Positions 5,375 through 43,275 of a stretch of DNA of 64,000 bases are shown in pieces. How positions within the stretch are numbered: the first letter of the stretch is position 1; every line of letters starts with the position of its first letter. A program made the translations under genes and the position numbers. This stretch comes from Ginglymostoma cirratum. Lineage: Eukaryota. The stretch covers positions 46,106,456 through 46,170,455 of the forward strand of contig JAHRHZ010000266.1 of NCBI GenBank assembly GCA_024137785.1, read 5' to 3'. The notes under the pieces were generated by a model. That model was not told the origin of the DNA and ran no database searches. It saw nothing but the letters and a program-made list of their open reading frames with translations.

Positions 5375-6565
5375 TTAATCAACTTTACTAACACATTTTA
5401 CCCCAACCTCAAGTTCACCTGGACCATCTCCAATACCTCCCTCTCCTTTCTGGACCTCTCTGTCTCCATCTCTGGTGACCGCCTTGAAACCGACATCTAC
5501 TTAAAGCCCACTGACTCCTACAGCTACCGAGACAACACCTCCTCTCACCCACGTTCCTGCAAGAATACGATCCCCTACTCCCAATTCCTCCACCTCCACT
5601 GCGTCTGCTCCCAAGATGCGGTGTTCCACTCCCGCACATCCCAGATGTTCTCTTATTTCAAGGACCATATCTTACCCCCTCCCATGATTGAAAATGCCCT
5701 CAACCACATCCCTTGCATTTCCCGCACTTCTGCCTTCACATCCCCTCCCCCCAACAAAATCCCCATTGTCCCCACATATCACCCCACCAACCTCTGTATC
5801 CAACGTATCATTCTCCACCACTTTTGCCACCTACAATCCAACCCCACAATCAAAGATATATTTCCCTCCCCACCCCTATCTGCCTTCCGTAGGGACCGCG
5901 CTCTCCACGAATCTTTCGTTCACTGCACACTCCCCACTAGCCCCACCAACTCCGGCACATTTCCCTGCAATTGCAGGAAGTGTTACACCTGCCCCTACAC
6001 CTCCCCACTCACCTCCATTCAAGGCACCAAACAAACCTTCTACATCAACTTGGTCTACTGCATCCCCTGCTCCCAATGTGGCCTCCTCTACATCAGTGGG
6101 ACTAAGTGGAAGCTTGGAGACCATTTTGTAGAGCACCTGCGTTCTGTTCACGACCAACAACAACACTTTCCAGTCACGAACCATTTTAACTCCCTCTCCC
6201 TGGGTGGCATGTCCATCCTGGGCCTCCTCCAGTGTCACAGTGATGCCACCCGCAAACTGGAGGAGCAACACCTCCTATTCCACCTCGGGAGCCTACAGCC
6301 CAATGGCCTAAATGTGGATTTTACCAGTTTCAAAATCTCCCCACCCCCGGCCTCATCCCATGACCAACCCTCCCTCTCATCCCCACCTCCTCGACCTGAC
6401 ACAACCTGTCCATCTTCTCTCCCATCTATCCACTCCTCCCACCTCACTGACCAATCCCCACCACCCCCTACCTGCACTCACCTATCACCATCCCACCTAC
6501 CTCACCCAGCCCCACTCTCCTCTCTCTATTTATTTCTGAGCTCCCTTCCCCCTCCCCATTTCTGA
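5375..6565 (+). pseudogene. PLE ORF remnant: RT thumb + Cys linker + GIY-YIG endonuclease
   Basis: Stop-free frame LINFTNTFYPNLKFTW..FLDLSV..DIYLKPTD..SSHP..CKNTIPYSQFL..PCNCRKCYTCP..NLVYCIPCSQCGLLYISGTKWKLGDHFVEHLRSV..LQPNGLN. No N-terminus or start codon; YIGET is degraded to YISGT. Confidence 0.9.
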
Positions 6566-10613: not shown

Positions 10614-13117
10614 CTGTATTAAAAGATAGTCGACATTGGACTGCAAGAGCTCATTTGCACAGTGAAAGTAAACTTCAAGATTATAAATTTACTAGTCTTC
10701 AAGGCATCACTGAAATGAATTGAGAAGCAACCATGTTATAACATGTGTCCAGTAAGCTCTGACAGAAAGAGTCCCATCTATTTACATAAGAGCTAAAGAT
10801 GCCAAGTTCAACAATCAAATTTTTCTCCATCCCCCTGTAGTACGCTGCCTCTTTTTCTCCCTCTCCCAACAGATTCCCACTTACCCTGAATGCTCATAAA
10901 CACAGTTTTGACTCAATAGATTTTCTTTCTGCACCTACTAAACATAACAGAGTAATTATTTACAACATCTTAACTGTTGCAGAACTTTCTGCCTGAACTA
11001 AACATTGTTGCTGCTGTTAGTCATTACTGTAAAATACTTAATCCCTTTCAGAGTCAGAGTCATTCACTTCTACCTCCATCTGTTGTTTCATTAACTACTG
11101 AAATAGGAATCCTCCAGGACCAACCTCATGCTCCTTGGAAGTGTTATGGAGCTGGTAATGGTTTGGGAAATCTCTCTTTTCAGGTTTTAAATTTACAGTC
11201 ACTGTAGAATAGGACACATTTCTGGTAGAATGAGACTTTCATCTGTCACAAAAATCTGCCCTACTCTTGGGCTAAACACTGGCCTATAATTAAAATTTTT
11301 GTTTAATTTAAGTTTTGATTTAACGTAAATACTGAAGATAGGATTCATAGGAAAACATTTATGAAATCGAGGTGGAATGGTACAGCAGGAAAGCCTGCCA
11401 CAGCAGAAGGGTTTAGTCAAACTGTGCAAAAGTGGCATTGCTCTGTGCAGCAATGTCATCAGCTTTTCAGAAGGTTTTGCTCTGTAAGTTTCCCTTTGTA
11501 TCCAGCTTTCAACTATTTGCCTCATCTGCCTATTCACCACTGATATTCTTTATGCAATTGGTTCTGGTCACTGAAAAATAAGAAGGCACACAGAGGCAGA
11601 GATGTGGTGAAATGTATCCTTACAAAGTCTTCTGTGTTCTCCAATCCCACAAAAAAGGTCTGAATCCCACTGTTCACCAGTGGGTGAGCATAAAACTTGC
11701 ATTTGGTGGGGTTTCCGAACTACAACTGAACAGACTCCCACTGCATTACTGTCTGTGCTAATTTTACAGTCACGGACTGTTCTTTTTAATTCTTTTAATA
11801 TTTACAGGAAAATAATACACAAAGTCACGTCAGACAGGTGCTTTCAGTATTTGCCTATGAACATTCACTGGAGATTCTGCCTTGTAAGGTCTGAAGCGAA
11901 CAAAGTTTCTCATTGTTGGTTGTTCTGCAATGGGAATGGAAGTCAAAAAGAGAGGTGCCTTAACTTCAGCTGTATAAATTCTGAGGCAGAGTGAGAGCAC
12001 TGAGAAACCAAATGCACGGTTGAGGATCTTATCCTGAAGGATTTTGAAACCCATAGTCCTACTGCAGTAATAGAAAATGGGCTGGATTTCAGTGTCCCCC
12101 AGTGGGCATGTTTTTGATTGGGGCACACAAAATATGTCACCAGCTAGCCTATTGACTTCCCATCTACCCCTAATCACACCTGTAATATGGGGTTTGGGTA
12201 AGGCATCCAGTAACTTGCCTGCATGTAGGTATATTATAGTTCCAAAGTACCCATAACACCCATTTAAACTTCATTGTTACTTTAAGATGAGCAGTAGAAG
12301 GTATGAAAAAGGGAGAAAGCCTTCTTTCTAAAACAACTTTAATTAATGGCACAGGCGACATCCCCAAACAAATACTATCCCCCACCTTGTACTTCCCTGC
12401 CTGGTTCCAAAATCCACACCTCCATCACCCCTCTCCCTCTTGCTTGGGACCTAAACCCCCCACCAGCCAAAAAGCTGGGATTTACCTGGGTCTGGTGTCT
12501 ACCTTCAGGCTCATAGGCCTGCCTGCAGTCCCAGCAACATCCACTACTGAGCATTGGTGTCATTAACATTTATTTTCAAAAGACTTTTAATAAGGCCTCA
12601 TAACAGAGTATTGAGTAAGGTCAAAGAATGTGAAGTCAATGGACAATTGCTAGAATGCTTCTAGACTAAAACCAAAGAATATCGAGTAGGTTTGAAGGGT
12701 GGCAGAAATTGGAAAGTGATGCTAGAGCCATTTTTGCTCCCAACTTACATCAATGATTTGCACTATAGAATCAAAAACAATTTGTAAATTTGAGGATAAC
12801 ACCAAATTTGCCGAAAGCATTGTTTATATTCAATGCAGAGGAGGGCCACAAAAAATTATAGGAAGACATTAATAAACTTATAGAATGGTGAATAATTCGC
12901 AAATGAAGTTCCACACAATAAAAGATGAGGAAATGTTTTTGGTAGAAAGAACAAGGAAGTTATGTATTACTTGCAAAGTGAAAATCTATGTGGGAGAAAG
13001 GAGAAATAGTCCTGGTAAAAATATATTAATTGCTGGGAGTTGTACAAGGCCATAAAGTTATTTCTAGAGGGACAGAACTGAAAAGTAGCCAAGTTATTTT
13101 AACCTTGAATTGAACCT

Positions 13118-13386
13118 TGTGTTTTCAAATGCAGGTAGGTCTGAGATAACATGGGTTTCGTTAACGTAAATTGGCTGTAACACGATTGATGAATAGTGGA
13201 TGCTGTTTGGATAATGCCAACTTTCTGCTGTACAGGCATAGCGATTTTCTATAGCATTTTCCCATGGCAATTTTCTATAGCACAATTTTCTATAATGCCA
13301 TGTCATACAAGAACACAACTATCATGTTATAGGAGAACTATCTGTAAACCTGTTGCACAAAACCTGGTGTCGTGTGATTTTTAACC
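13118..13386 (+). mobile_element. PLE pLTR 3' fragment interrupted by a MITE, flanked by an 11-bp direct repeat
   Basis: 'tgtgttttcaaat'+'aaacctgttgcacaaaacctggtgtcgtgtga' matches the reverse complement of 21330-21376; flanks ttgaaccttgt at 13110-13120 and 13387-13397. Confidence 0.7.
13132..13344. mobile_element. MITE-like non-autonomous DNA transposon (Tc1/mariner-pogo-like)
   Basis: Imperfect 22-bp TIRs caggtaggtctgagataacatg / catgttataggagaactatctg, TG/TA flanks, three internal 'attttctata' repeats. Confidence 0.65.
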
Positions 13387-14144
13387 TTGAACCTTGTTTA
13401 GACCACATTTAGACAATTACATACAGTACTGGTTATCATATTATGAAAAGAACATAGGCGCACTGGGGATGTCAGAAGATTCATAGGTGTGCATGGATAT
13501 ATGTTTCTGGTAAGGATTAACATGCTATATCTCATATCTCTTGGAAAAAAAGTTGTGCCCTATCACAGTCTTTCAAATTATGAAAGGTTTTGATAGAGTT
13601 GATACAGGGAAAATGTTTCTACTTGTGAGGAATAGCACAATGATAGGTCATTGATATAAGCGAGTCAGGAAGAAATCCAATATAGAATGGCGAAGGAACT
13701 TGTGTTAGACAAGTATGTGCTGGAGACGTGAATAAATAGATATGGTGGTGTGTTTAGATGAGAAAAGGTTGTTCAAGCGGAACATAAATACCAACATAGA
13801 CTAGTTGGACATAATGGTCTGTTTCCATGTAGTATATCCTTTGCAACTCAATGCAGTATCAACAGGTAAATGTTAAAGTAGTGGAAATTCTATGATTTGA
13901 TACAAATGTGTCAATCTTAATGGCGTAGTTTCATATTCAAAGGTTTACAGAACCACATGTCCCATGTTGCACTCGCATAGCCTGTATTGACAATACATTG
14001 CCCGTGCCCAATTCTATAAATGCAGTGCACTATTTTCACACTCTGATGCCACTTGAGTTACTTACCTAATATTCAGTATAGAGTAAACAATGCAGTTCAA
14101 TTATATATATTTTGCATTTAATTATTTCTCTAATTAAGTAATGA

Positions 14145-14308
14145 GTTTTGCTGTGCCAGAATTTGTTGTCTATCCTCAGTTGGCCTGGAGAAGTTGGTGG
14201 TGAGTTGGCTTCTTGAATGCTGCAAGCCATTCCTCAAAGGCAAGTGGGGATGGGCAAAAATGCTAGCCCAGGCAGCAATGTCTATATTTCATGAATAAAT
14301 AATAAAAA
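14145..14308. mobile_element. Two family-B LINE/SINE tails in opposite orientation
   Basis: 14145-14232 matches 28750-28830 (minus tail); 14233-14308 matches 43202-43272 (plus tail). Confidence 0.6.
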
Positions 14309-14901
14309 GATTACCTTCATTATATATATGTGAATAAACTAGTGAGTAAATACATGACTTATTGCTGCAGGTCTACATCTCTATAAGTCTGTTTGCATCA
14401 CACCTCACCCCAGATATGACAGATTAGTTAGCTAACCTCATCTTTATCTATAGTTTGCTTTGCGTTTGAACCAGCTGCTAAAAGGTATGGAAGAATAAAG
14501 CAAATCAGATGCAGAATTACCACTTCACTAATTTTGTCTCTTCTTCCTGGCAGAAATGACTCAGATCTGGGGGACACCTCGAACAGCCAGGCTTTGAACA
14601 CCAATCCAACATCTCGAGAATACAAGAATACTTTTGACTCATTTTTAATTATAATTGTAATATTAGTAGTACAGAAATTGAGTATTACTGAAAAATTGCT
14701 TGTGCAAGACAAAAAGCTTTGTCAAAATGTGTCTTTTTCTTAGTATGACTCAAGTTTTAATTATATGATAACAGACTGAAATTTGACAGCCACTATTTCA
14801 ACTTGAATTGTATTAAGAAGGTTGATAGAGGAAGAGACATTAAAACTGAACTATGTAGGTTAATGTTGAGGTTGGTTGGCTTGCCGAGCTGGTTTGTTGT
14901 T

Positions 14902-14945
14902 CCGCAGACTTTTCGTTACTGTGCTTGGTAACATCCTCAGTGCAG
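14902..14945 (-). ncRNA. Mutated hammerhead copy in the left inverted arm
   Basis: Reverse complement ctgca CTGAGGA t gttacc aagcac agtaac GAAA AGTC tgcgg; two substitutions relative to 15044-15087. Confidence 0.6.
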
Positions 14946-15043
14946 CCTCTGATGAAGCGTCGGTGTGTTTTCCCGCCTGGTTTTTAAACTCTGGGGTCCA
15001 ATTGCGATGGATTGCCTCACTTCTGGGTTTCCTTCATCAGAGG

Positions 15044-15087
15044 CTGCACTGAGGATGTTACCAAGCACGGTAACGAAACGTCTGCGG
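15044..15087 (+). ncRNA. Minimal type-I hammerhead ribozyme, intact-looking
   Basis: Stem I ctgca/tgcgg, CTGAGGA (15049-55), extra T, stem II gttacc-aagcac-ggtaac, GAAA (15075-78), CGTC with a GUC cleavage triplet ending at 15082. Confidence 0.8.
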
Positions 15088-16261
15088 AACAACAAACCAG
15101 CTCGGCGAGCCAACCAACCTCAACACCCACAAGCCGATCTACAGATCTACTCCAAAATCTTATTCAGGTTAGGTAAAAGATGTGAGATATGGGAAGGTTG
15201 AAACTCACCAGCATTCACTTAGCTTCTCTTTAAATTAAGATGAAGACAAGTTAAATTTTCTGGAGAAATGCTGGAAAGTAAATGTCACAAAAATACTTCT
15301 GAAGCAATGTTAAACTGAATTGTAAAACTAATTTCAAAGTCCTGGGTTTCAAACTTAGTTCCTTATAAAAATATCAAACTAGTAACAAATGGCACATAGT
15401 CATTTTTCTACTGACTCAACAGTTTGTTTATGGTCCTGAAGCAAAATGTTTTTGTGTTCGGGGAGGGGGGGGGGAGGTGAAGGGAGGGGGCAAGGACATT
15501 TAATCAGGTGGAAAGATGAGGAATGGGACCCAGCCATATTCTCATCATTAATATGATCAAGTCCATAGTAGAAAAGACCATGCTTTCCTGTAATTAATGT
15601 ATACTTAAAGACTTCATCCACTGCTACTGGTATTAATCTGCAAATGGTCACAAGGCATAACCAAACAGGGAGTTCCACAATCAGACAGCAGCACGGCTGC
15701 TAATGCACTCCTGGGAGGTGGGAAGGGCACTCGGTGCCTGATTTAGGAACTGGCATCGGGAAGGAGGGAGTTTACTTACAGCTACCCCACCTTGCTTTTA
15801 CTGCCAACTCTCCTGCACACACACTCTCATCTCCATGACTTTCATCCCCAAAGCCCCCTCTTGCCATTACTCATCTCTGGCCGGAGATCCAGAGCCAACT
15901 TTTAGCTTTGGGTGACGGCTGTACTGACAGTAGCCTCCTTCTCGCTGGTGACGCTGTCATTGAGTATAACTGCAGACCTCTGATTGGCCGGCAGCTCTGG
16001 ACAGGCTTCCATTTCCAAGGTCCTTGTTCCCAGGGTACACCCACTGCTGGCCTGTCAACTGCCTGAGTGGAGCAAGATGTAGTGGACCTTCCAAGAGACA
16101 ATACTGGCCTCTACCATCTCTCCAGCCAGTTGCCAAAACCCTCATCCCCTCCATAAGGTTTCAGTTCTTGTTTCTATAATTCATTGTCTTTCATCTGCTG
16201 TCAAAAATGTTATCATGGCATTTCCCACAGAAGTAATTAAAAAAAAAAGCAAAAACAAAGT

Positions 16262-16661
16262 NNNNNNNNNNNNNNNNNNNNNNNNNNNNNNNNNNNNNNN
16301 NNNNNNNNNNNNNNNNNNNNNNNNNNNNNNNNNNNNNNNNNNNNNNNNNNNNNNNNNNNNNNNNNNNNNNNNNNNNNNNNNNNNNNNNNNNNNNNNNNNN
16401 NNNNNNNNNNNNNNNNNNNNNNNNNNNNNNNNNNNNNNNNNNNNNNNNNNNNNNNNNNNNNNNNNNNNNNNNNNNNNNNNNNNNNNNNNNNNNNNNNNNN
16501 NNNNNNNNNNNNNNNNNNNNNNNNNNNNNNNNNNNNNNNNNNNNNNNNNNNNNNNNNNNNNNNNNNNNNNNNNNNNNNNNNNNNNNNNNNNNNNNNNNNN
16601 NNNNNNNNNNNNNNNNNNNNNNNNNNNNNNNNNNNNNNNNNNNNNNNNNNNNNNNNNNNNN
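16262..16661. other. Assembly gap (400 N)
   Basis: Run of N. Confidence 1.
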
Positions 16662-16763
16662 GTCAAGTTTTCCTGCTCCTATGATGCTGCTTGACCTGCT
16701 GTGTTCATCCAGCCCCACGCTTGTTATCTCGGATTCTCCAGCATCTGCAGTACCTTTTATCTC
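16662..16763 (+). mobile_element. PLE pLTR 3' end (same family as 6587-6686), cut by the gap
   Basis: 'gtcaagttttcctgctcctatgatgctgcttgacctgctgtgttcatccagc...ccagcatctgcagt' aligns with 6587-6686. Confidence 0.85.
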
Positions 16764-16849
16764 TGATTCCTATCCTATGTGTGGTGCAAATACAGGGATA
16801 GCTCTACGCTCTTCATAGGACAGCATTAACACATATTTATGTATCATCT

Positions 16850-17570
16850 TTAATATCATGGAATGTCAAAAGGTGATACAGACACAGGGTCACAACCAAA
16901 CAAAGCACATCACCAAGCCGCATAAGATTATGTTAGTTCAGCATGATCAAAGAGTTAGGTTTTAAGAAGTGAATTTAAGGAGGAAAGAAAGAGAGAGAGA
17001 TTGGGAGGGTAAATAAAGGGAGAGATTTACAGAATGTGGGGTTTCGGCAACTGCAGGCACAATGTGGAGCAAGAGGTCAAATTTAGTGAAGCACAAATAT
17101 GTCTGAGGTTGTGGAGCTGGAGCAGATTTCAGAGATACTGAGGGTTAAGGACATGGAAGTATTTGAAAACAAGGATGAGAATTTTAAAATGAAGCTGTTG
17201 CTTGACCAACAGCCAATTCAGATCAGTAAGCACAGGGCTGTTAGTGGAAGGGGACATGTTGTGGTTAAGACATGTGCAGCAGAGTTTTGTTTAGATAATA
17301 TGGGACACCATACAGGAATGTATTAGAATGTTCAAATCTAAACGTAAAGAAGGAATGGATGAGGACTTCAGCATCAGGTAAGCTTAAAAAAAGGCCAAAA
17401 TCAAGCAATGTTACAGAGGTGAAAACAGACAATCTTAGCAATAACATGAATATGAGATCAGAAGCTTACTTAGGGTCAAATGTGATACCAAGATCACAAA
17501 TAGACTAGCTTAATCTTAGACACTGCCAGATGAATGGATAAAGTCAGTTTTAGGGAAAAAGGTTTGGAAC
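16850..17570 (-). mobile_element. L2-type LINE 3' fragment
   Basis: Reverse complement is similar to the plus-strand L2 at 54480-55290 (e.g. 'gtaacattgcttgatt', 'tgctgaagtcctcatccattcctt'). Confidence 0.7.
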
Positions 17571-19324
17571 AAGATTAGAGAAGCCTTGTAACTTCTATGG
17601 CAACATACAGGGTATGAAAATCCAACAAAATCTATCTTCTTTGTTCTTATCTGGACAATACACCCAAAAATGAGCATTCAATGATAGAAACAGTCAAGAA
17701 AAAAGGCTCCTTAATACCTTACCACAATTACCAAGTGGCAGTGCTAAAACCAGTGTAACTGGCATTCAAAAATTGCCTTGTATAAGGATTCCCTCATTGT
17801 CCAGTTAAAATTGATACAATTTTCATTGCAGTATTTTTATATCTAGTAGATGCTCACTATCTTTAAAATCTAAAATCATTTAGTGTTTCCATTTGAATTT
17901 CTATTTCTTGATCACTTTTGTACTTTACTTATCTACACATATGCAGGATTCCTAAATTCATGTAGAAAACAGACTAACTTTGTAATGAAATTATTTGCTT
18001 CCACCATCAAGGTCTGGTGTTAGTATAATATCTAGTTTTTAGTGCTATCACCCCTGCAAACGAACAGGCGAACTAAGTGCTATTCTTCAAATGTTCCTCA
18101 TTATCTGAATATGAGCAGACAAACATCTGACAGTCTAATCAATTGGAGATGCTCTATAAACTTTAGGATTGTTAAAATTCTATTTTTGAAGCAAAACTAA
18201 TGAACAAATAATGTATTTAGGATTAAGATGGCAGATAATATCTGTGGTCAGTGTTTATCATAACAACAATTGACTTTTATACTGAAGGACATCAACTACA
18301 GATCAACCTTCTGCAGCAGGGTATAGCTCCAACTCAAAACGTCTGTTCAATTTGAGCTCCAACACTCATTTTTGTCAAACGCAGACATTTTCTGGCAAAC
18401 TGATCAAGGCTTTCTGTCAGTGACTCAGCTGCTTTTTGCAATGCATACAGATTAAACATGCAGTGTGTTATGCCTATTTTCATCCATTGTGGGTCATGAC
18501 ATCACTGTCAGCCAATAATAATGCATTTGTACTAGTTTAGAAACTTATTCTCTAGAAATAAGTATAACTTGTATTACAAGCTGTAGTTTAAATTAGAAAC
18601 AATGATTGTAACTGGTCCTTCATATTTATATAACGGTAAGATTTCATAAAACAAATCACTTGAATTACCTTATCATATCCACAGTATAAACGGGAAGTTT
18701 TTTTTGCAATCTTATTCGATAACAGTTACTTGGTCACTATCAATAAGTCAATAATTAGGGGTCTGTGTTTTGCATCAAAATGTGCAGCTAGTATCAAATA
18801 CCTATCAAAGGTACCAAAGATGTAACAGGAAGGATGTTCTGATTAAGATTAATCAACCCGTATTTCAGGTTGACCCATTTAACTGCACAGAGAAAGTTGT
18901 GAGTTGAGAATATGGTAGCATATCATCAAGGCTGATGCACAACTTTGAGTGGAAGAGCACGCTTTACTAAAAACTTTCCAAAGGGAACTGAATAAATACT
19001 TCAAGAGAAAAGTTGGTTAAGTCCATGAAGAATGACATGTGAGAGTGGGATTTATAACTCTTCCAAAGCTCTTTGGAAGTGCTGGGACAGACTTGATGGA
19101 TTAAATGTGGAATTTCTGTCTTCTACTATTCAATCTCTGTATAATTTATTGTGGGGCCTTATAAAATCCAAACTATTTTGCAAACAAAGGACTGTTTTTT
19201 TTTCTATCTCTGTTGTTACAGTTCTAGAATGGAGCTGCTCTGACAATGCTGGTTGTGCTGTCAACCAGATCAGTCATCCAGGGAATATTCTTTCACCTAC
19301 TCCATGACTTTGAAGAAGTGCTCC

Positions 19325-28712: not shown

Positions 28713-29948
28713 TTTTTTTTAATTCAGTCATGGGATGTGGGCATCACTGACTGGCCAGCATTTATTGCCCATTCCTAGTTGCTGTTGAAAAAGTGGTGGT
28801 GAGATGCCTTCTTGAACCGCTGCAGTCCACCTGCTGAGGGATGGCCAACAATGGCAGTAGGGAGACAATTCCAGGATTTTGACCCAGTGACAATGTCCAA
28901 GTCAGGATGGTGAGTGGCTTGGAGGCAAACTTGCAGATGATGGTTATCCCATGTGTCTGCTGCCCTTGTCCTTTTTGATGAAAGTGGTCATGAGTTTGGA
29001 AGGTGTTGTCTCAGGAGTTTTGGTGAATTTCTGCGGTGCATCTCGTAGATAGTTCTCACTACTATTACCGAATATCGGTGGTGGAGGGAGTGGATGTTTG
29101 TGGATGTGGTGCCAATCAAGCAGGCTGCTTTGGCCTGGATGATGTCAAGCTTCTTCAGTGATGTGGGAGCTGCAACCACCCAGGCAGGTGGGAAGTGTTC
29201 TATCACACTCCTCATTTGTGTCCTTTAAATGATGGACAGGTTTTAGGGAGTCAGGAAATAAGCTACTTGCCAAAGTACTCCTAGCCTCTGATCTGATCTT
29301 GTAGCCAATGTGTTTATGTGGTGAGTCCAGTTGAGTTCCTGGTCAATGGTAGTCCCAAGGATGTTAACAGTGGGAGATTCAGTGATTGTAACACAATTGA
29401 AAGTCAAAGGGCGGTGATTAGATTGTCTCTTATTGGTGATGGCCATTGCCTGGCATTTGTGTGGCATGAATGATACTTGTCACTTGTCAGCTTAAGCCTC
29501 GATATTGTCCAGCTCTTATTGCATTTGAACATGGACTGCTTCAGTATCTGAGAAGACGCAAGTTGAGCTGAACATCGTGCAATCGTTAGCGAACATGTCC
29601 ATTTCTGACCTTATGATGGAGGGAAGGTCACTGATGAAGCAGCTGCAAATGGTTGAATAGGACACCTCCCTGAGGAACTCCTGCAGAGTCCTGGAGCTGA
29701 GATGGCCAACCTCCAACAACCGCAACCATTTTCCTATGTGCCAAGTATGACTTCCACCAGCATGATACCCATTGATTCCAGTTTTGCTAGGGTTCCTTGA
29801 TGCCACACTTGGTTGAATGCAGACTTGACGTCAAGGGCTGTCACTCTCATCTCACGTCTGGAATTCAGCTCTTCTGTCCGTGTTTGAACCGAGACTTTAA
29901 CGAGGTCAGGAGCTAAGTGGCCCTGGTGAAACTCAAACTGGGCGTCAA
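28713..29948 (-). mobile_element. 5'-truncated CR1-group LINE (family B), RT remnant
   Basis: Minus-strand peptides DAQFEFHQGH, ALDVKSAFNQVWHQG, FISDLP..MFANDC, ILGTTIDQELNW, LKKLDIIQAKAACLIG; paralogous to 41868-43275. Confidence 0.92.
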
Positions 29949-30034
29949 TCAACACTAAGATTTAGAATAGTTTTTTATTGGTGCAGACCTGATGGGCCAA
30001 TTGGTCTCTTCTATATTATATGATGTTACAATTT

Positions 30035-33679: not shown

Positions 33680-34129
33680 AGTAAGACTTTTTTATTGCTG
33701 ATTCAGGATATTCATAACAGCTGTCTTTGCAATCAGTGTGTTACTTCTTTCAACAACTCATGGGCCCTAGAACCCAGGCCTTCTACATTGTGAGTACCAT
33801 GTTGAAGGCATCCCCGATGACTGGCTTCAATATTGATCAACTCTTTTAATGAGTCAATCAACACCAGCTACTTATTAGGCCAACTAAGACAAGCTAACAT
33901 TGGCATTCAAAAAAGGAGATAAAAGTCTGAGAAACTACAGATCAGTATTCTCACCAGCATCATTTGAAAATTTCTTGAATATACTGTTCACTCTCAATTC
34001 ATGAAGCATTTGAAGGTTCATAATATCCGAGTAAATAGCTTGGCTTTTGGCCAAAACAATCTACCAAAACACAGCTTTCCCAGACTGTCGATGACCAAGT
34101 TCCAAGCTGTGCAAGCGAGAAATCTACTC

Positions 34130-34515
34130 ACGTAACAGAACTAGATTTCTCAAAAGCCTTTGATAAAGTTCCTCATAAAATCTTCTGTCCAAACTTGATT
34201 ACCATGGAATCAGGAGACAACTGGATTTGAAACTTTCTTACAGCAGAAGACAGAGTGAGATCAGATAAAGAATCATCTACATGCTTTTGCAAAAGAGAGA
34301 TCATGTTTAATCAATCAATTGGAGCTCTTTGAAGAGGCGACAAATGCCGGAGGTAAAGGATAACTGGTGAATGCACTGTACTTAGATTTGCAGACTGTAT
34401 TTGAGTTAAGGTGCCATGTCAAATGTTGCATCACAGAAAAGTTTGTAGTGTAGGGAGCAACATATTGGCATGGATGGGATAGTAGCTAACTAATAGGCAG
34501 CTGACTGTAAGCACC
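34130..34515 (+). mobile_element. Two adjacent decayed CR1-group RT fragments
   Basis: 'ctagatttctcaaaagcctttgataaagttcctcat' (LDFSKAFDKVPH) and 'tcatgtttaatcaat...tacttagatttgcagact' (SCL.N..YLD). Confidence 0.65.
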
Positions 34516-39255: not shown

Positions 39256-40569
39256 AGTGATTTCCCCTGCTGCTACATATGCAGGCCTCCTTTGCACCCT
39301 CCTTAATGATCACCGCATGGACCCTCAGGATTGCATTTGACCCAGACCATTGACCGACTTGGACAAACAATCCCAAGGCTGTACTGACCAGACGCCTGAC
39401 CGCTGTCTTTGCAGCTTCTTCACTAATAGTACATGATTCCCCAACTGCTGTTGCTGTCCCACAGGACAGACCATTGAACCCTCCTCAGATAACAATCAGA
39501 CAGATCCCCTGACGATGAGTGTTCCAGGCTGAAGACTGAATGTAGCCAAGCCCCAGGACTGTCTGTGTGCCTGTGCCTCTGACTGATGGTACTAGGACCC
39601 CGCGACTGACAGCAATTCCTTCCCCCACCCCAGACTGGTTTGAAGACTTGAAGATGAGCACCCAGCCAATTTTGATGGATAAACGTGCAGTGTGTTTGCT
39701 GTGCAAGCAGGTGCTAAACTGCTGTATGGGTGTGCAGTGCATTAAAATGTCCCCCCACTCCCAGACAGATCCATACTAACAAGCAGCCTGCCAGTGAGTC
39801 TGCACATAACAGTACATCAATGCAGCATTACTGACAGCCTTTGACTCCGCCTGAAGCACGAATGCGCTGACAGCATGGATGCTGCAAGTGTATAGCTAAG
39901 TTTTAAGTGAGGGAGCACTGAGACAGCACGCAAGCAGCCCTGAGATACAGTCTGGTCCAGTCTGTGAACTGGGTGCACCCCCCTGCAGGCAATGTATGCC
40001 TGCTGCAGCATTTGAACACGAGCTGTCAGTGTGCGCTGCAGTATGGGTCTGTGCTTCATTAGTGGCAATCATGTGGATCAGAGAAGTACCATGATGATCT
40101 TGAGAGTTGTAGGACGCCAATGTCTGTTAATGAAGGGTGAACATGGCTACAGTCCATGGATTGTGTTCTGCGCAAAATAATGGCTCCTCGCAGCCAGCAG
40201 TGAGCTGAAGTCATTCAATTTCTTGCCACAGCGTAGCGTGAAAATCACCTCACCAGTCGGCAAAACTATAAAAGATGCAGCAAGATGCACACAATGTCAA
40301 AACTGGCCTTGCCAGGCTTCTTGTCTGATTCAGCCACAAAGCTCGCCAAAGTCCATGTGGCTCAGAGCCCTATAGGCTCTGCGCAATGCTTTCAGTCTTT
40401 CCAATATTTATATGGAGAAAAATCTCTTTGTCAGGTATGCCTCATGTAAACTGACTCTACAGAAGATACAATCATTACTTTTATCACCCATTGTCCAGGA
40501 AGTAGTTACAAGCTGCTAATCAGAAAGCAGATGTGAGTTTCAAAACACAGCTCATTAAAACAGGAGTTT

Positions 40570-40780: not shown

Positions 40781-41867
40781 TATTAGTTCTTATCAGCAAT
40801 ATTTCCAAATTTGCAAGCGGTGTTTCACGGAAAATTCGCACCTAGCAGAAACTGTGTTGATTCCATTCAATTTTATTTTATATCAAGTTCCATAAGACAA
40901 GTAGACAAGCAAAATTTATCTTCCATCAGTGTGACTGAAATTCAAACGAACTATAGAATGATCACCAGACATTAAAAGACACCATGGCTCTTAGTTTCTG
41001 TGGGCAACTTTGCGTTCTCCTGTCACAAATCTGGTGCATGATCAACAGAACTCCCAGACAAAGGCCTGTTTTTTCAAAGTCTTTTTTTTCCCTTCAGCAG
41101 GCAGCACATATTAATCCTACCGTCTCTGTTCAGGGAGAGGCTCTGCACAAATGCTGGTAAAGTTATCAGCAGGAAGGAGAATCTGTGGTTTGCAGAACAT
41201 CCAGTTCACTCAAACTGTGGTGGGACTTTGCAACAGATAGATTTTGATGCCTGCAATAGACATTCTTTCATTCGTTTTCTGGAGACATCTCTCACTTAAA
41301 TGTGTTAAAAACAGACAAGAATTTATCCACACAACGATCCACAGCAAGGTTTATTTTTATTATGTTATCACACTAGGAAATATTATACCAGGAAAGCAGA
41401 CTACCTGGTTCAAAAAAGTAATCAAGTGAATGAACCTCTGTGGGCTATTAAGCACATTAAAATTAAATGCTATGTCAATTTGAATCTAGTTGCTAGCTGA
41501 AGCTGAGCAAAGTGCCTAATTGATTTAATCCTATGTGGAACCTTCTGTAACCACTGTTAAAACTCCTCATATTACACTGACATTGATACATCTAGTCTAA
41601 GATAGCTTATTCTGTCATTGCCTAATTCCAAATAAAAAAGTGATGTAAGTCAAAGTTCTGACAGTGTAACTCTACTCCTGCCGTATTTTACGCTTTCTTC
41701 ACACACAAGCTGGCATATGTATAATCTAAGTGCATTAGGAGTCAACACTGCAAAAGTTCTGCAAGTTGGAAACTATAAATAAATTAAAATGCCCTTAATG
41801 TCCACCTGCTTTACAACATTTAATCAGCTCTGCCGAGAGCATCTAGATTTTAGTTTCTACTTTCATA

Positions 41868-43275
41868 CATTCCAGCAAGAGTATTGAAATCATGCGCTCC
41901 AGCACTTACCACTCCCCTAGCCAATCTGTTCCAGTACAGTTCCACGAATGCATTTACCTGACAATGTGGAAAATTTCCCACCTATGCCCTGTACATAAAA
42001 AGCTGGACAATTCCAACCCGGCCAATTACTGGGCCATCAGTCTACTCTCAAATATCAATAAAGAGATGGAAGGTGTCATCAACAGTGATATCAAGCAGCA
42101 CCTGCTCAGCAATAACTCGCTCAGTGATGCCCAGTTTGGGTTCCTCCAGGGTCACTCAGCTCCTGGCCTCATTACAGCCTTGGTTCAAATCTGGACAAAA
42201 GAGCTGAATTCCAGAGGTGAGGTGAGATTGACATCCCTTGACATCAAGGCTGCATCCGACCGAGTGTGGCATCAAGGAGCCCTAGCAAAACTGGAATCAA
42301 TGGGTATTGGGGGAAAACTCTCTCATGGGTAGAGTCACACATGGCACATAGGAAGATGGTTGTAGTTGTTAGAGGTCAGTCATCTCAGCTCCAGCACATC
42401 TTTGCAGGAGTTCCTCAGGGTAGCGTCCTAGGCCCAACCATCTTCAGCTGCTTCATCAATGACCTTTCCTCCATCATAAGGTCAGAAGTGGGTACATTCG
42501 CCAATGATTGTCCAATGTTTGGCTCTGTTCGTGACTCCTCAGATCCTGAAGCAGTCCATGTGAGCATCACCAATAAGAGACAATCTAAGCACCGTCCCTT
42601 GGCTTGCAATGATGTTACCTTCACTGAATCCCCAACTATCAGCATCCTGGGGGTTATCACTGATCAGAAACTCAACTGGATTCACTACATAAACACAGTG
42701 GCTACAAGAGCAGGTCAGAGGCTAGGAATACTGCGGCGAGTAACTCGCCTCCTGACTGCTCAAAGCCTGTCCACCATCTACTAGGCACAAGTCAGGAGTG
42801 TGATGGAATACTCCCCACTTGCCTGGATGAGTGCAGCCCCAACAACACTCAAGAAGCTTGACACAAACCAAGACAAAGCAGCCTGCTTGATTGGCACTAC
42901 ATCTACAAGGATCCATTCCCTCCAGCACTGATGGTCAGTAGCAGATGCTCAGGACCAAGATCCTCAGACAGCACCTTCCAAACCCACAACCACTTCCACC
43001 TAGAAGGACAATGGCTGCAGATATGTGGGAACACCACTACCATCAAGCCTCCAAGCCACTCATCATCCTGACTTAGAAATATATTGCCTCTCCTTCACTG
43101 TCACTAGGTTTAAATCCTGGAGTTTCTCCCTAATGCCATTGTAGGTCAACCTACAGCTGGTGGACTGCAGCGGTTCAAGAGGCAGCTCAACCAGCACCTT
43201 TTCAAGGGCATCTAGGGATGAGCAATAAATGCTGGCCAGCCAGCAATGCCCACATCCCAGAAAATGAATAAAAAC
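41868..43275 (+). mobile_element. 5'-truncated CR1-group LINE (family B): RT domain and 3' UTR
   Basis: Peptides CPVHKK..NPANYWAISLLS..QFGF..LDIKAASDRVWH..GVPQGSVLGPTIFSCFINDL..FANDC..LGVITDQKLNW; contains a frameshift and stops; tail 'aatgaataaaa'. Confidence 0.95.

Follow-up and report, generated by a model that had tools for sequence, protein, structure and literature searches.

Head-to-head insertions of PLE retrotransposons have been described before. For Pen2a_Av an inverted pseudo-LTR (pLTR), a one-sided tail of 31 bp and a 9-bp target site duplication (TSD) are reported in the available part of PMC3846280, and in the accessible text of PMC8557442 the inverted pLTR, the one-sided tail and the TSD are given as general PLE features; the same text names a Zn-finger motif in the linker as the mark of Neptune and Nematis. 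Minimal hammerhead ribozymes (min-HHRs) of PLEs are the subject of PMC4209133, the available sections of which already document dual min-HHRs lying 100-700 bp apart on opposite strands, and state that lone min-HHRs do not cleave and that dimers cleave weakly. For PAc of Anolis it is reported, in the part of PMC11167929 that could be obtained, that the element nicks both target strands, that reverse transcription starts at two sites bounding the tail, that the ribozyme cleaved only with the protein and was dispensable for insertion in vitro, and that the start codon overlaps the ribozyme.

The insertion considered here occupies 14864-15162 (299 bp) of a 64,000-nucleotide stretch of the Ginglymostoma cirratum genome, referred to below as the window. 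It is very probably a single, doubly truncated PLE of Poseidon type, in which two 5'-truncated pLTR pieces stand head to head, most likely as a result of twin priming, and the hairpin which they form is likely an unselected by-product. The locus shares with Pen2a_Av and other EN+ PLEs (PMC3846280 and the legend of Fig. 2 in PMC8557442, both available in part) a 5'-truncated copy inverted head to head, a tail at one end only (30-40 bp in those elements, 37 nt in the window) and a pLTR that includes the ORF's first codons; at the level of its family it also shares a TSD (~8-15 bp). What is different is that the arms in the window have been shortened down to the ribozyme region, that the family is of shark type, and that its ends have been counted over 47 pairs. 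It can be said that the locus is an ordinary dead stub of an abundant retrotransposon, and its shape has already been published.

A repeat search of the window returned an arm pair at 14864-14957 and 15032-15125, each of 94 nt, with a complementarity of 97% and a gap of 74 nt, which reproduces in full the 94-bp arms, the three differences and the 74-nt spacer of the first-pass annotation. The extent of 14864-15125 given there had to be enlarged to 14864-15162: a 37-nt tail extends the plus arm, and the spacer belongs to the minus arm. When compared by BLAST with the near full-length genomic copy L032, element positions 2361-2529 correspond to 15033->14864 (94.7%) and positions 2436-2566 to 15032->15162 (93.1%). 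The tail-less arm, of 170 nt with the 74-nt spacer included, covers 14864-15033 on the minus strand and terminates at the tail-less end of the family, which falls within element positions 2527-2533 in 41 of 46 pairs; the tailed arm, of 131 nt, covers 15032-15162 on the plus strand, and the two overlap by 2 nt (CT) at 15032-15033, the junction overlap recorded for the window locus L001. Because the arm lengths are unequal on the element alignment, the "spacer" at 14958-15031 (minus strand) is the segment of the longer arm which is absent from the shorter one. It holds the last codons of the PLE ORF, past the GIY-YIG endonuclease, and a one-base insertion near 15000 shifts its frame, so that the translation is divided between two frames; other copies have a single continuous frame, and public contigs have one base fewer than the window at 15000/15001.

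The tail at 15126-15162 (plus strand) is present on one arm only, and loose ends of contigs from public runs accumulate at 15123/15125 and 15162. On both sides of the insertion stands the word AGGTTA (14857-14862 and 15166-15171, plus strand), probably a decayed TSD in register with those of the family; taken alone this exact 6-nt flank word is not significant, because 13% of control pairings reach a word of that length, and the TSD is documented family-wide, at 37 of 47 inverted pairs. No direct repeat of the unit was found in 12000-18000 and no other copy in the whole window, hence the site has no tandem array of retrozyme type. A run of 400 N occupies 16262-16661.

The three mismatches between the arms lie at 15069/14920 (stem II of the ribozyme), 15079/14910 (its ACGU palindrome) and 15107/14882 (outside the ribozyme), and all three are CpG sites. 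It had been pointed out previously that two of them fall in the ribozyme of the minus arm; the positions are right, and as a signal this was dropped, as for a ribozyme of 44 nt the chance probability is 0.45 and every mismatch is a CpG. Nor are the arms of 14864-15162 unusually alike: an equally close match is reached in 19% of comparisons with other copies. Folding of 14850-15170, which had been proposed as a check, gave strong hairpins on both strands (-208 kcal/mol on the plus and -206 kcal/mol on the minus strand, z about -23 and -24), and none of 100 shuffles was equally stable. A match to MIR1031 in Rfam (40.7 bits vs a gathering score of 100) reflects the hairpin only.

The hammerhead of the plus arm was identified by reading the motif against the min-HHR description in the available part of PMC4209133, and all the features named there are present, which bears out the complete minimal hammerhead announced at 15044-15087. 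Stem I is formed by 15044-48 and 15083-87, followed by CUGAGGA (15049-55), an unpaired U (15056) and stem II of 6 bp opening with G-C (15057-62 and 15069-74), then by GAAA (15075-78), ACGU (15078-81) and C17 at 15082. The plus arm therefore contains what defines the minimal type-I hammerhead: CUGANGA...GAAA...UH, helices I and II, the extra base 9/10.1, G10.1-C11.1 and a palindromic 15.1-16.1. The cut is predicted after C15082, and stem III would consist only of the ACGU palindrome, for which a second copy is needed. With the PLE min-HHRs of PMC4209133, as far as its accessible text describes them, it shares a helix I of 5 bp, a helix II of 6 bp plus a possible U.G, the unpaired base 9/10.1, G10.1-C11.1 and the palindromic 15-16 region; helix II is of 6-7 bp in the window vs 7-8 bp in the Schistosoma family. 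The counterpart in the minus arm, at 14902-14945, is damaged: a G>A change at 14920 removes one pair of stem II and a change at 14910 breaks the ACGU palindrome, and its isolated fold is of -9.5 kcal/mol vs -15.2 for the copy in the plus arm. A search with the Rfam hammerhead covariance models, also proposed as a check, detected nothing at the gathering score in the whole window nor at E<=10 in 14700-15300.

The ribozyme core at 15050-15057 (plus strand) holds the stop codon of one ORF (TGA, 15050-52) and the start codon of the next unit (ATG, 15055-57), which are 2 nt apart. Family copies terminate with "...LHQRLH*" at this TGA; the 36 codons from 15055 align with the protein P0004 from residue 1 (17/36 identical, E 1e-07), and the frame from 15055 continues into the ORF in L032 and L033. 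The conserved extra base 9/10.1 of PLE min-HHRs is the U of the AUG at 15055-57. While the overlap of start codon and ribozyme is already described for PAc, no mention of an overlap of the stop codon with the ribozyme core was found in the available part of PMC11167929. By the same partial source, PAc resembles the present family in the ORF start at stem II of the ribozyme, in the reverse transcriptase (RT) with a C-terminal GIY-YIG, in an AC-rich region and in the two ends bounding the tail; the distance from the cut site to the A of ATG is 28 nt in the window vs 26 bp in PAc, and the tail end lies at +108 in the family of the window vs 111-118.

The window covers only the end and the start of the PLE ORF, and the presence of RT and GIY-YIG in the family was established through the locus L031, the open frame of which has 671 aa with a match to RVT_1 in Pfam (E 4.8e-11) followed by GIY-YIG; the Pfam match of the latter is weak (E 0.79, residues 544-580), nevertheless YIGQTGR and the motifs downstream still align with relatives. 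The nearest named relatives of L031 are shark proteins (64-67% over 59-66% of the query), and RT proteins of flatworms are also found. In L032 and L033 a pLTR piece lies directly 5' of the ORF, so that pLTR and ORF start overlap, and the end of the GIY-YIG endonuclease frame is located upstream of solo copies. The family had been expected to map to PLE ends, and the BLAST alignment to L032, the RT and GIY-YIG of L031 and the N-terminal match to P0004 agree with this. The linker of L031 has no Zn-finger motif of Neptune or Nematis type, and the family is therefore placed, by its anatomy and not by an RT tree, as an apparent member of the Penelope/Poseidon clade of EN+ PLEs. In the genome (4.36 Gb) the sequence of the window yields 4111 candidates at the DNA level, the best 40 of which were scored, and the protein encoded just upstream yields 49883, the best 150 of which were scored; these are candidates and not copy numbers. 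The family is very common, with thousands of copies in the genome.

The geometry of the family was recorded at 70 loci, of which 30 were taken from the DNA search, 10 for a visible opposed pair, 10 for long open frames and 20 by rank. Opposed 3' ends are present at 47 of them, and all 47 pairs are divergent, that is, directed outward. In 46 of the 47 inverted pairs one arm is tailed and the other tail-less; the exception is L062, a complex locus with two tailed ends, and in L068 the tail-less call adjoins masked bases. As 30 loci were chosen by their likeness to the repeat and 10 by a visible pair, a fair frequency of inversion can be taken only from a subset of 24 copies (ranks 2-25 of the protein search, taken without regard to inversion), among which at least 17 are inverted, a lower bound set by the limited flanks. 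This fits the background given with the initial reading, that PLE pLTRs with min-HHRs are often inserted together with an inverted copy. An exact flank word of at least 8 nt accompanies 37 of the 47 inverted pairs vs 17 of 2162 mismatched control pairings. The word touches the boundary of the element in 24 of 46 pairs, and in 11 of these it enters the tail-less end by at least 2 nt, where about 1.5 would be expected by a rough estimate of chance.

Inner junctions vary between copies, arm lengths run from ~50 nt to >2 kb, and either arm may be the longer one. On the inner side it is the tail-less arm that is longer in 27 of 46 pairs, and BLAST places an overlap of 1-9 nt at the junction in 27 of 46 as well. 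Over all 46 pairs the arms differ from each other by 7.3% on average vs 8.2% from other copies (closer in 32/46), and in the 21 pairs with an overlap of at least 300 nt by 5.0% vs 6.7% (closer in 20/21); the closer arms of long pairs fit a shared source or a shared age. The solo loci among L016-L070 end in the tail-less end in 12 of 23 cases and in the tailed end in 11, and at some of them the partner may be hidden by masked bases or lie beyond the flank. In L032, L033, L041, L047 and L051 extra inverted or displaced internal pieces of 80-450 nt stand between the arms, which suggests further template switches.

The steps of such an insertion may be pictured as follows. The GIY-YIG endonuclease would nick both target strands ~8-15 bp apart; one nicked end would prime cDNA synthesis at the tail end (ORF base ~+108) and the other one at the tail-less end (~+71), aided by 1-5 nt of complementarity; both cDNAs would stop early, and their inner truncated ends would be joined through a short overlap, 2 nt in the present case. 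What speaks against this scheme is that it would need two molecules of RNA, or one tandem RNA, since both arms cover the same sequence of the element, and that the site has an exact flank word of 6 nt only and no observed empty counterpart. The ribozyme lies just 5' of both start sites, and therefore even the shortest insertions would have one ribozyme per strand, each placed after its antisense copy. In L1 twin priming the inverted segment is primed at the second target nick, the TSD is kept and the junction has microhomology, while separate parts of a single RNA supply the arms and the internal priming site is variable. The PLE arms described here, in contrast, represent one and the same stretch, and their two starting points are fixed. 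That the two RT start sites of Poseidon are used together, one for each nicked strand, in nearly every inverted insertion is a proposal with about equal weight for and against it. The tail-end site would then be used with little or no homology and the tail-less site via pairing of 1-5 nt with the target, with a dimeric protein holding two RNA copies, one for each start site. If true, the tail, the inverted pLTR and the TSD would all follow from a single step of joint use, and PLEs would routinely seed the genome with thousands of dsRNA hairpins silencing their own ribozyme. An assignment of the two start sites of PAc to the arms of inverted insertions was not found in the available part of PMC11167929. 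A literature search for twin priming of Penelope, or for A-to-I editing of inverted hammerhead copies, returned nothing relevant, and as subscription papers are poorly covered by it no novelty is implied. The end geometry of the family offers a modest mechanistic lead and useful material for studying the integration of PLEs; from the one-tail rule (46/47), the TSDs and the microhomology of the tail-less end, predictions can be drawn for a test in the PAc system in vitro.

The inverted arm could also be thought to derive from a fold-back (self-priming) of one cDNA or antisense RNA and not from priming at the second nick, and in the accessible part of PMC3846280 inverted junctions are read as self-priming from palindromes. 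Arms that are more alike in long pairs are what one template gives, although a common source or age would have that effect too, and the BLAST-defined junction overlaps speak for self-priming too. Against it, the tail-less arm is longer on the inner side and the tail sits on the shorter arm, both in the window insertion and in the 27 pairs mentioned above; neither arm is a plain copy of the other because the shorter one is tailed and the longer one tail-less, an argument which applies to the cDNA version only. The microhomology between the target and the tail-less end points to target priming, and a fold-back is considered unlikely. It is hardly credible that the 299-bp palindrome is a mobile mini-element of MITE- or retrozyme-like kind which is copied as a unit: 14 other short two-armed copies rank at the top of the DNA search and the junction of L006 is near that of the window, however nearly every copy has an inner junction and arm lengths of its own, and a retrozyme-like tandem array is missing at the window site. 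Twin priming by the two nicked ends is the preferred reading of the insertion.

A separate matter is whether the hairpin serves the element or its host. The first-pass annotation had noticed that on either strand the antisense arm is made first, which holds by geometry, because the layout is head to head, the default product of the family. The sequestration of the ribozyme proposed there is reproduced by modelling: the predicted pair probabilities of its stems are 0.82-1.0 without the left arm and 0.000 with it, and to enforce these stems inside the hairpin would cost 70.6 kcal/mol in equilibrium folding. A transcript, if made, is thus predicted to form the 94-bp hairpin and to be prevented from folding the ribozyme. 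From this a function was suggested for the hairpin, that of a safety catch on an otherwise harmful ribozyme, by which inverted insertions would be tolerated in introns and dsRNA would be provided for ADAR or Dicer. The antisense-first order on both strands and the complete predicted sequestration are in line with such a role; retrozymes bearing a hammerhead are under-represented in introns and exons of Xenopus, according to the available part of bioRxiv 10.64898/2026.07.22.740005, so hammerhead inserts in introns may cost something, and Penelope copies yield small RNAs in Adineta (PMC3846280, accessible part). Yet each strand has one sense ribozyme, without stem III, and lone min-HHRs did not cleave in the sections of PMC4209133 available; by this analogy a lone minimal hammerhead is likely to be nearly inactive anyway. 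Intact-core solo copies exist and are no fewer than intact inverted arms (10/23 vs 27/86, Fisher p 0.32, in a solo sample biased to high identity and unstratified by intron), both arms have an intact core in 6 of 40 fully covered pairs, and the arms are free to diverge, by the mean of 7.3% given above. CpG positions in the ribozyme core have decayed in ~10-25%, while most other positions are retained in >90%; the decay is equal in solo and inverted copies, and nothing indicates that intact ribozymes are protected by the hairpin. Sequestration as a function is not supported, the layout being the default of the family and inverted arms holding no excess of intact cores, and the safety catch is very improbable in a window that yielded no host-gene exon among the frames scanned. 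Were such hairpins subject to large-scale editing or dicing, this would matter for the silencing of transposons in large genomes, an idea that finds no support here.

Host exons were sought by a Pfam scan of 188 of the 204 stop-to-stop frames of at least 62 aa, the 16 omitted ones overlapping the PLE, a fragment of Neptune type or a LINE; none was found among frames of this length, which short exons would escape. The scan yielded RT fragments, weak matches with E 0.005-0.01 and a match to Fer4_20 at 40181-40372 (plus strand, E 2e-4), the latter rejected as a host exon and held to be spurious, as it has no match in PDB and real matches of the family are on another contig. Contigs assembled from three presumed-RNA runs cover only repeats within 13600-15440 and not the unique flanks, and have no bearing on expression; their changes are mostly C>T and G>A, with many copies mixed, and hence they are uninformative on editing. 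No empty site was seen among the contigs of public runs. One contig of the X2 run spans 13600-14893 with 51 differences and reaches 30 letters into the element, one letter too few to count as bridging, and is at most a hint of an insertion shared with a relative. In the left flank a high contig depth marks three more short repeats (13786-13847, 14158-14343 and 14654-14777), and a piece at 14180-14307, which some contigs link to the PLE end, may be a related fragment. Elsewhere in the window, RT fragments of LINE type are located at 29737-29961 (minus strand), 34039-34227 (plus) and 41847-42781 (plus), with RVT_1 at E 1e-5 to 3e-5, and a frame of 396 aa at 5375-6562 (plus strand) encodes the C-terminal part of another PLE, with a Neptune-like linker (CNCRKCYTC) and 22% identity to the studied family.
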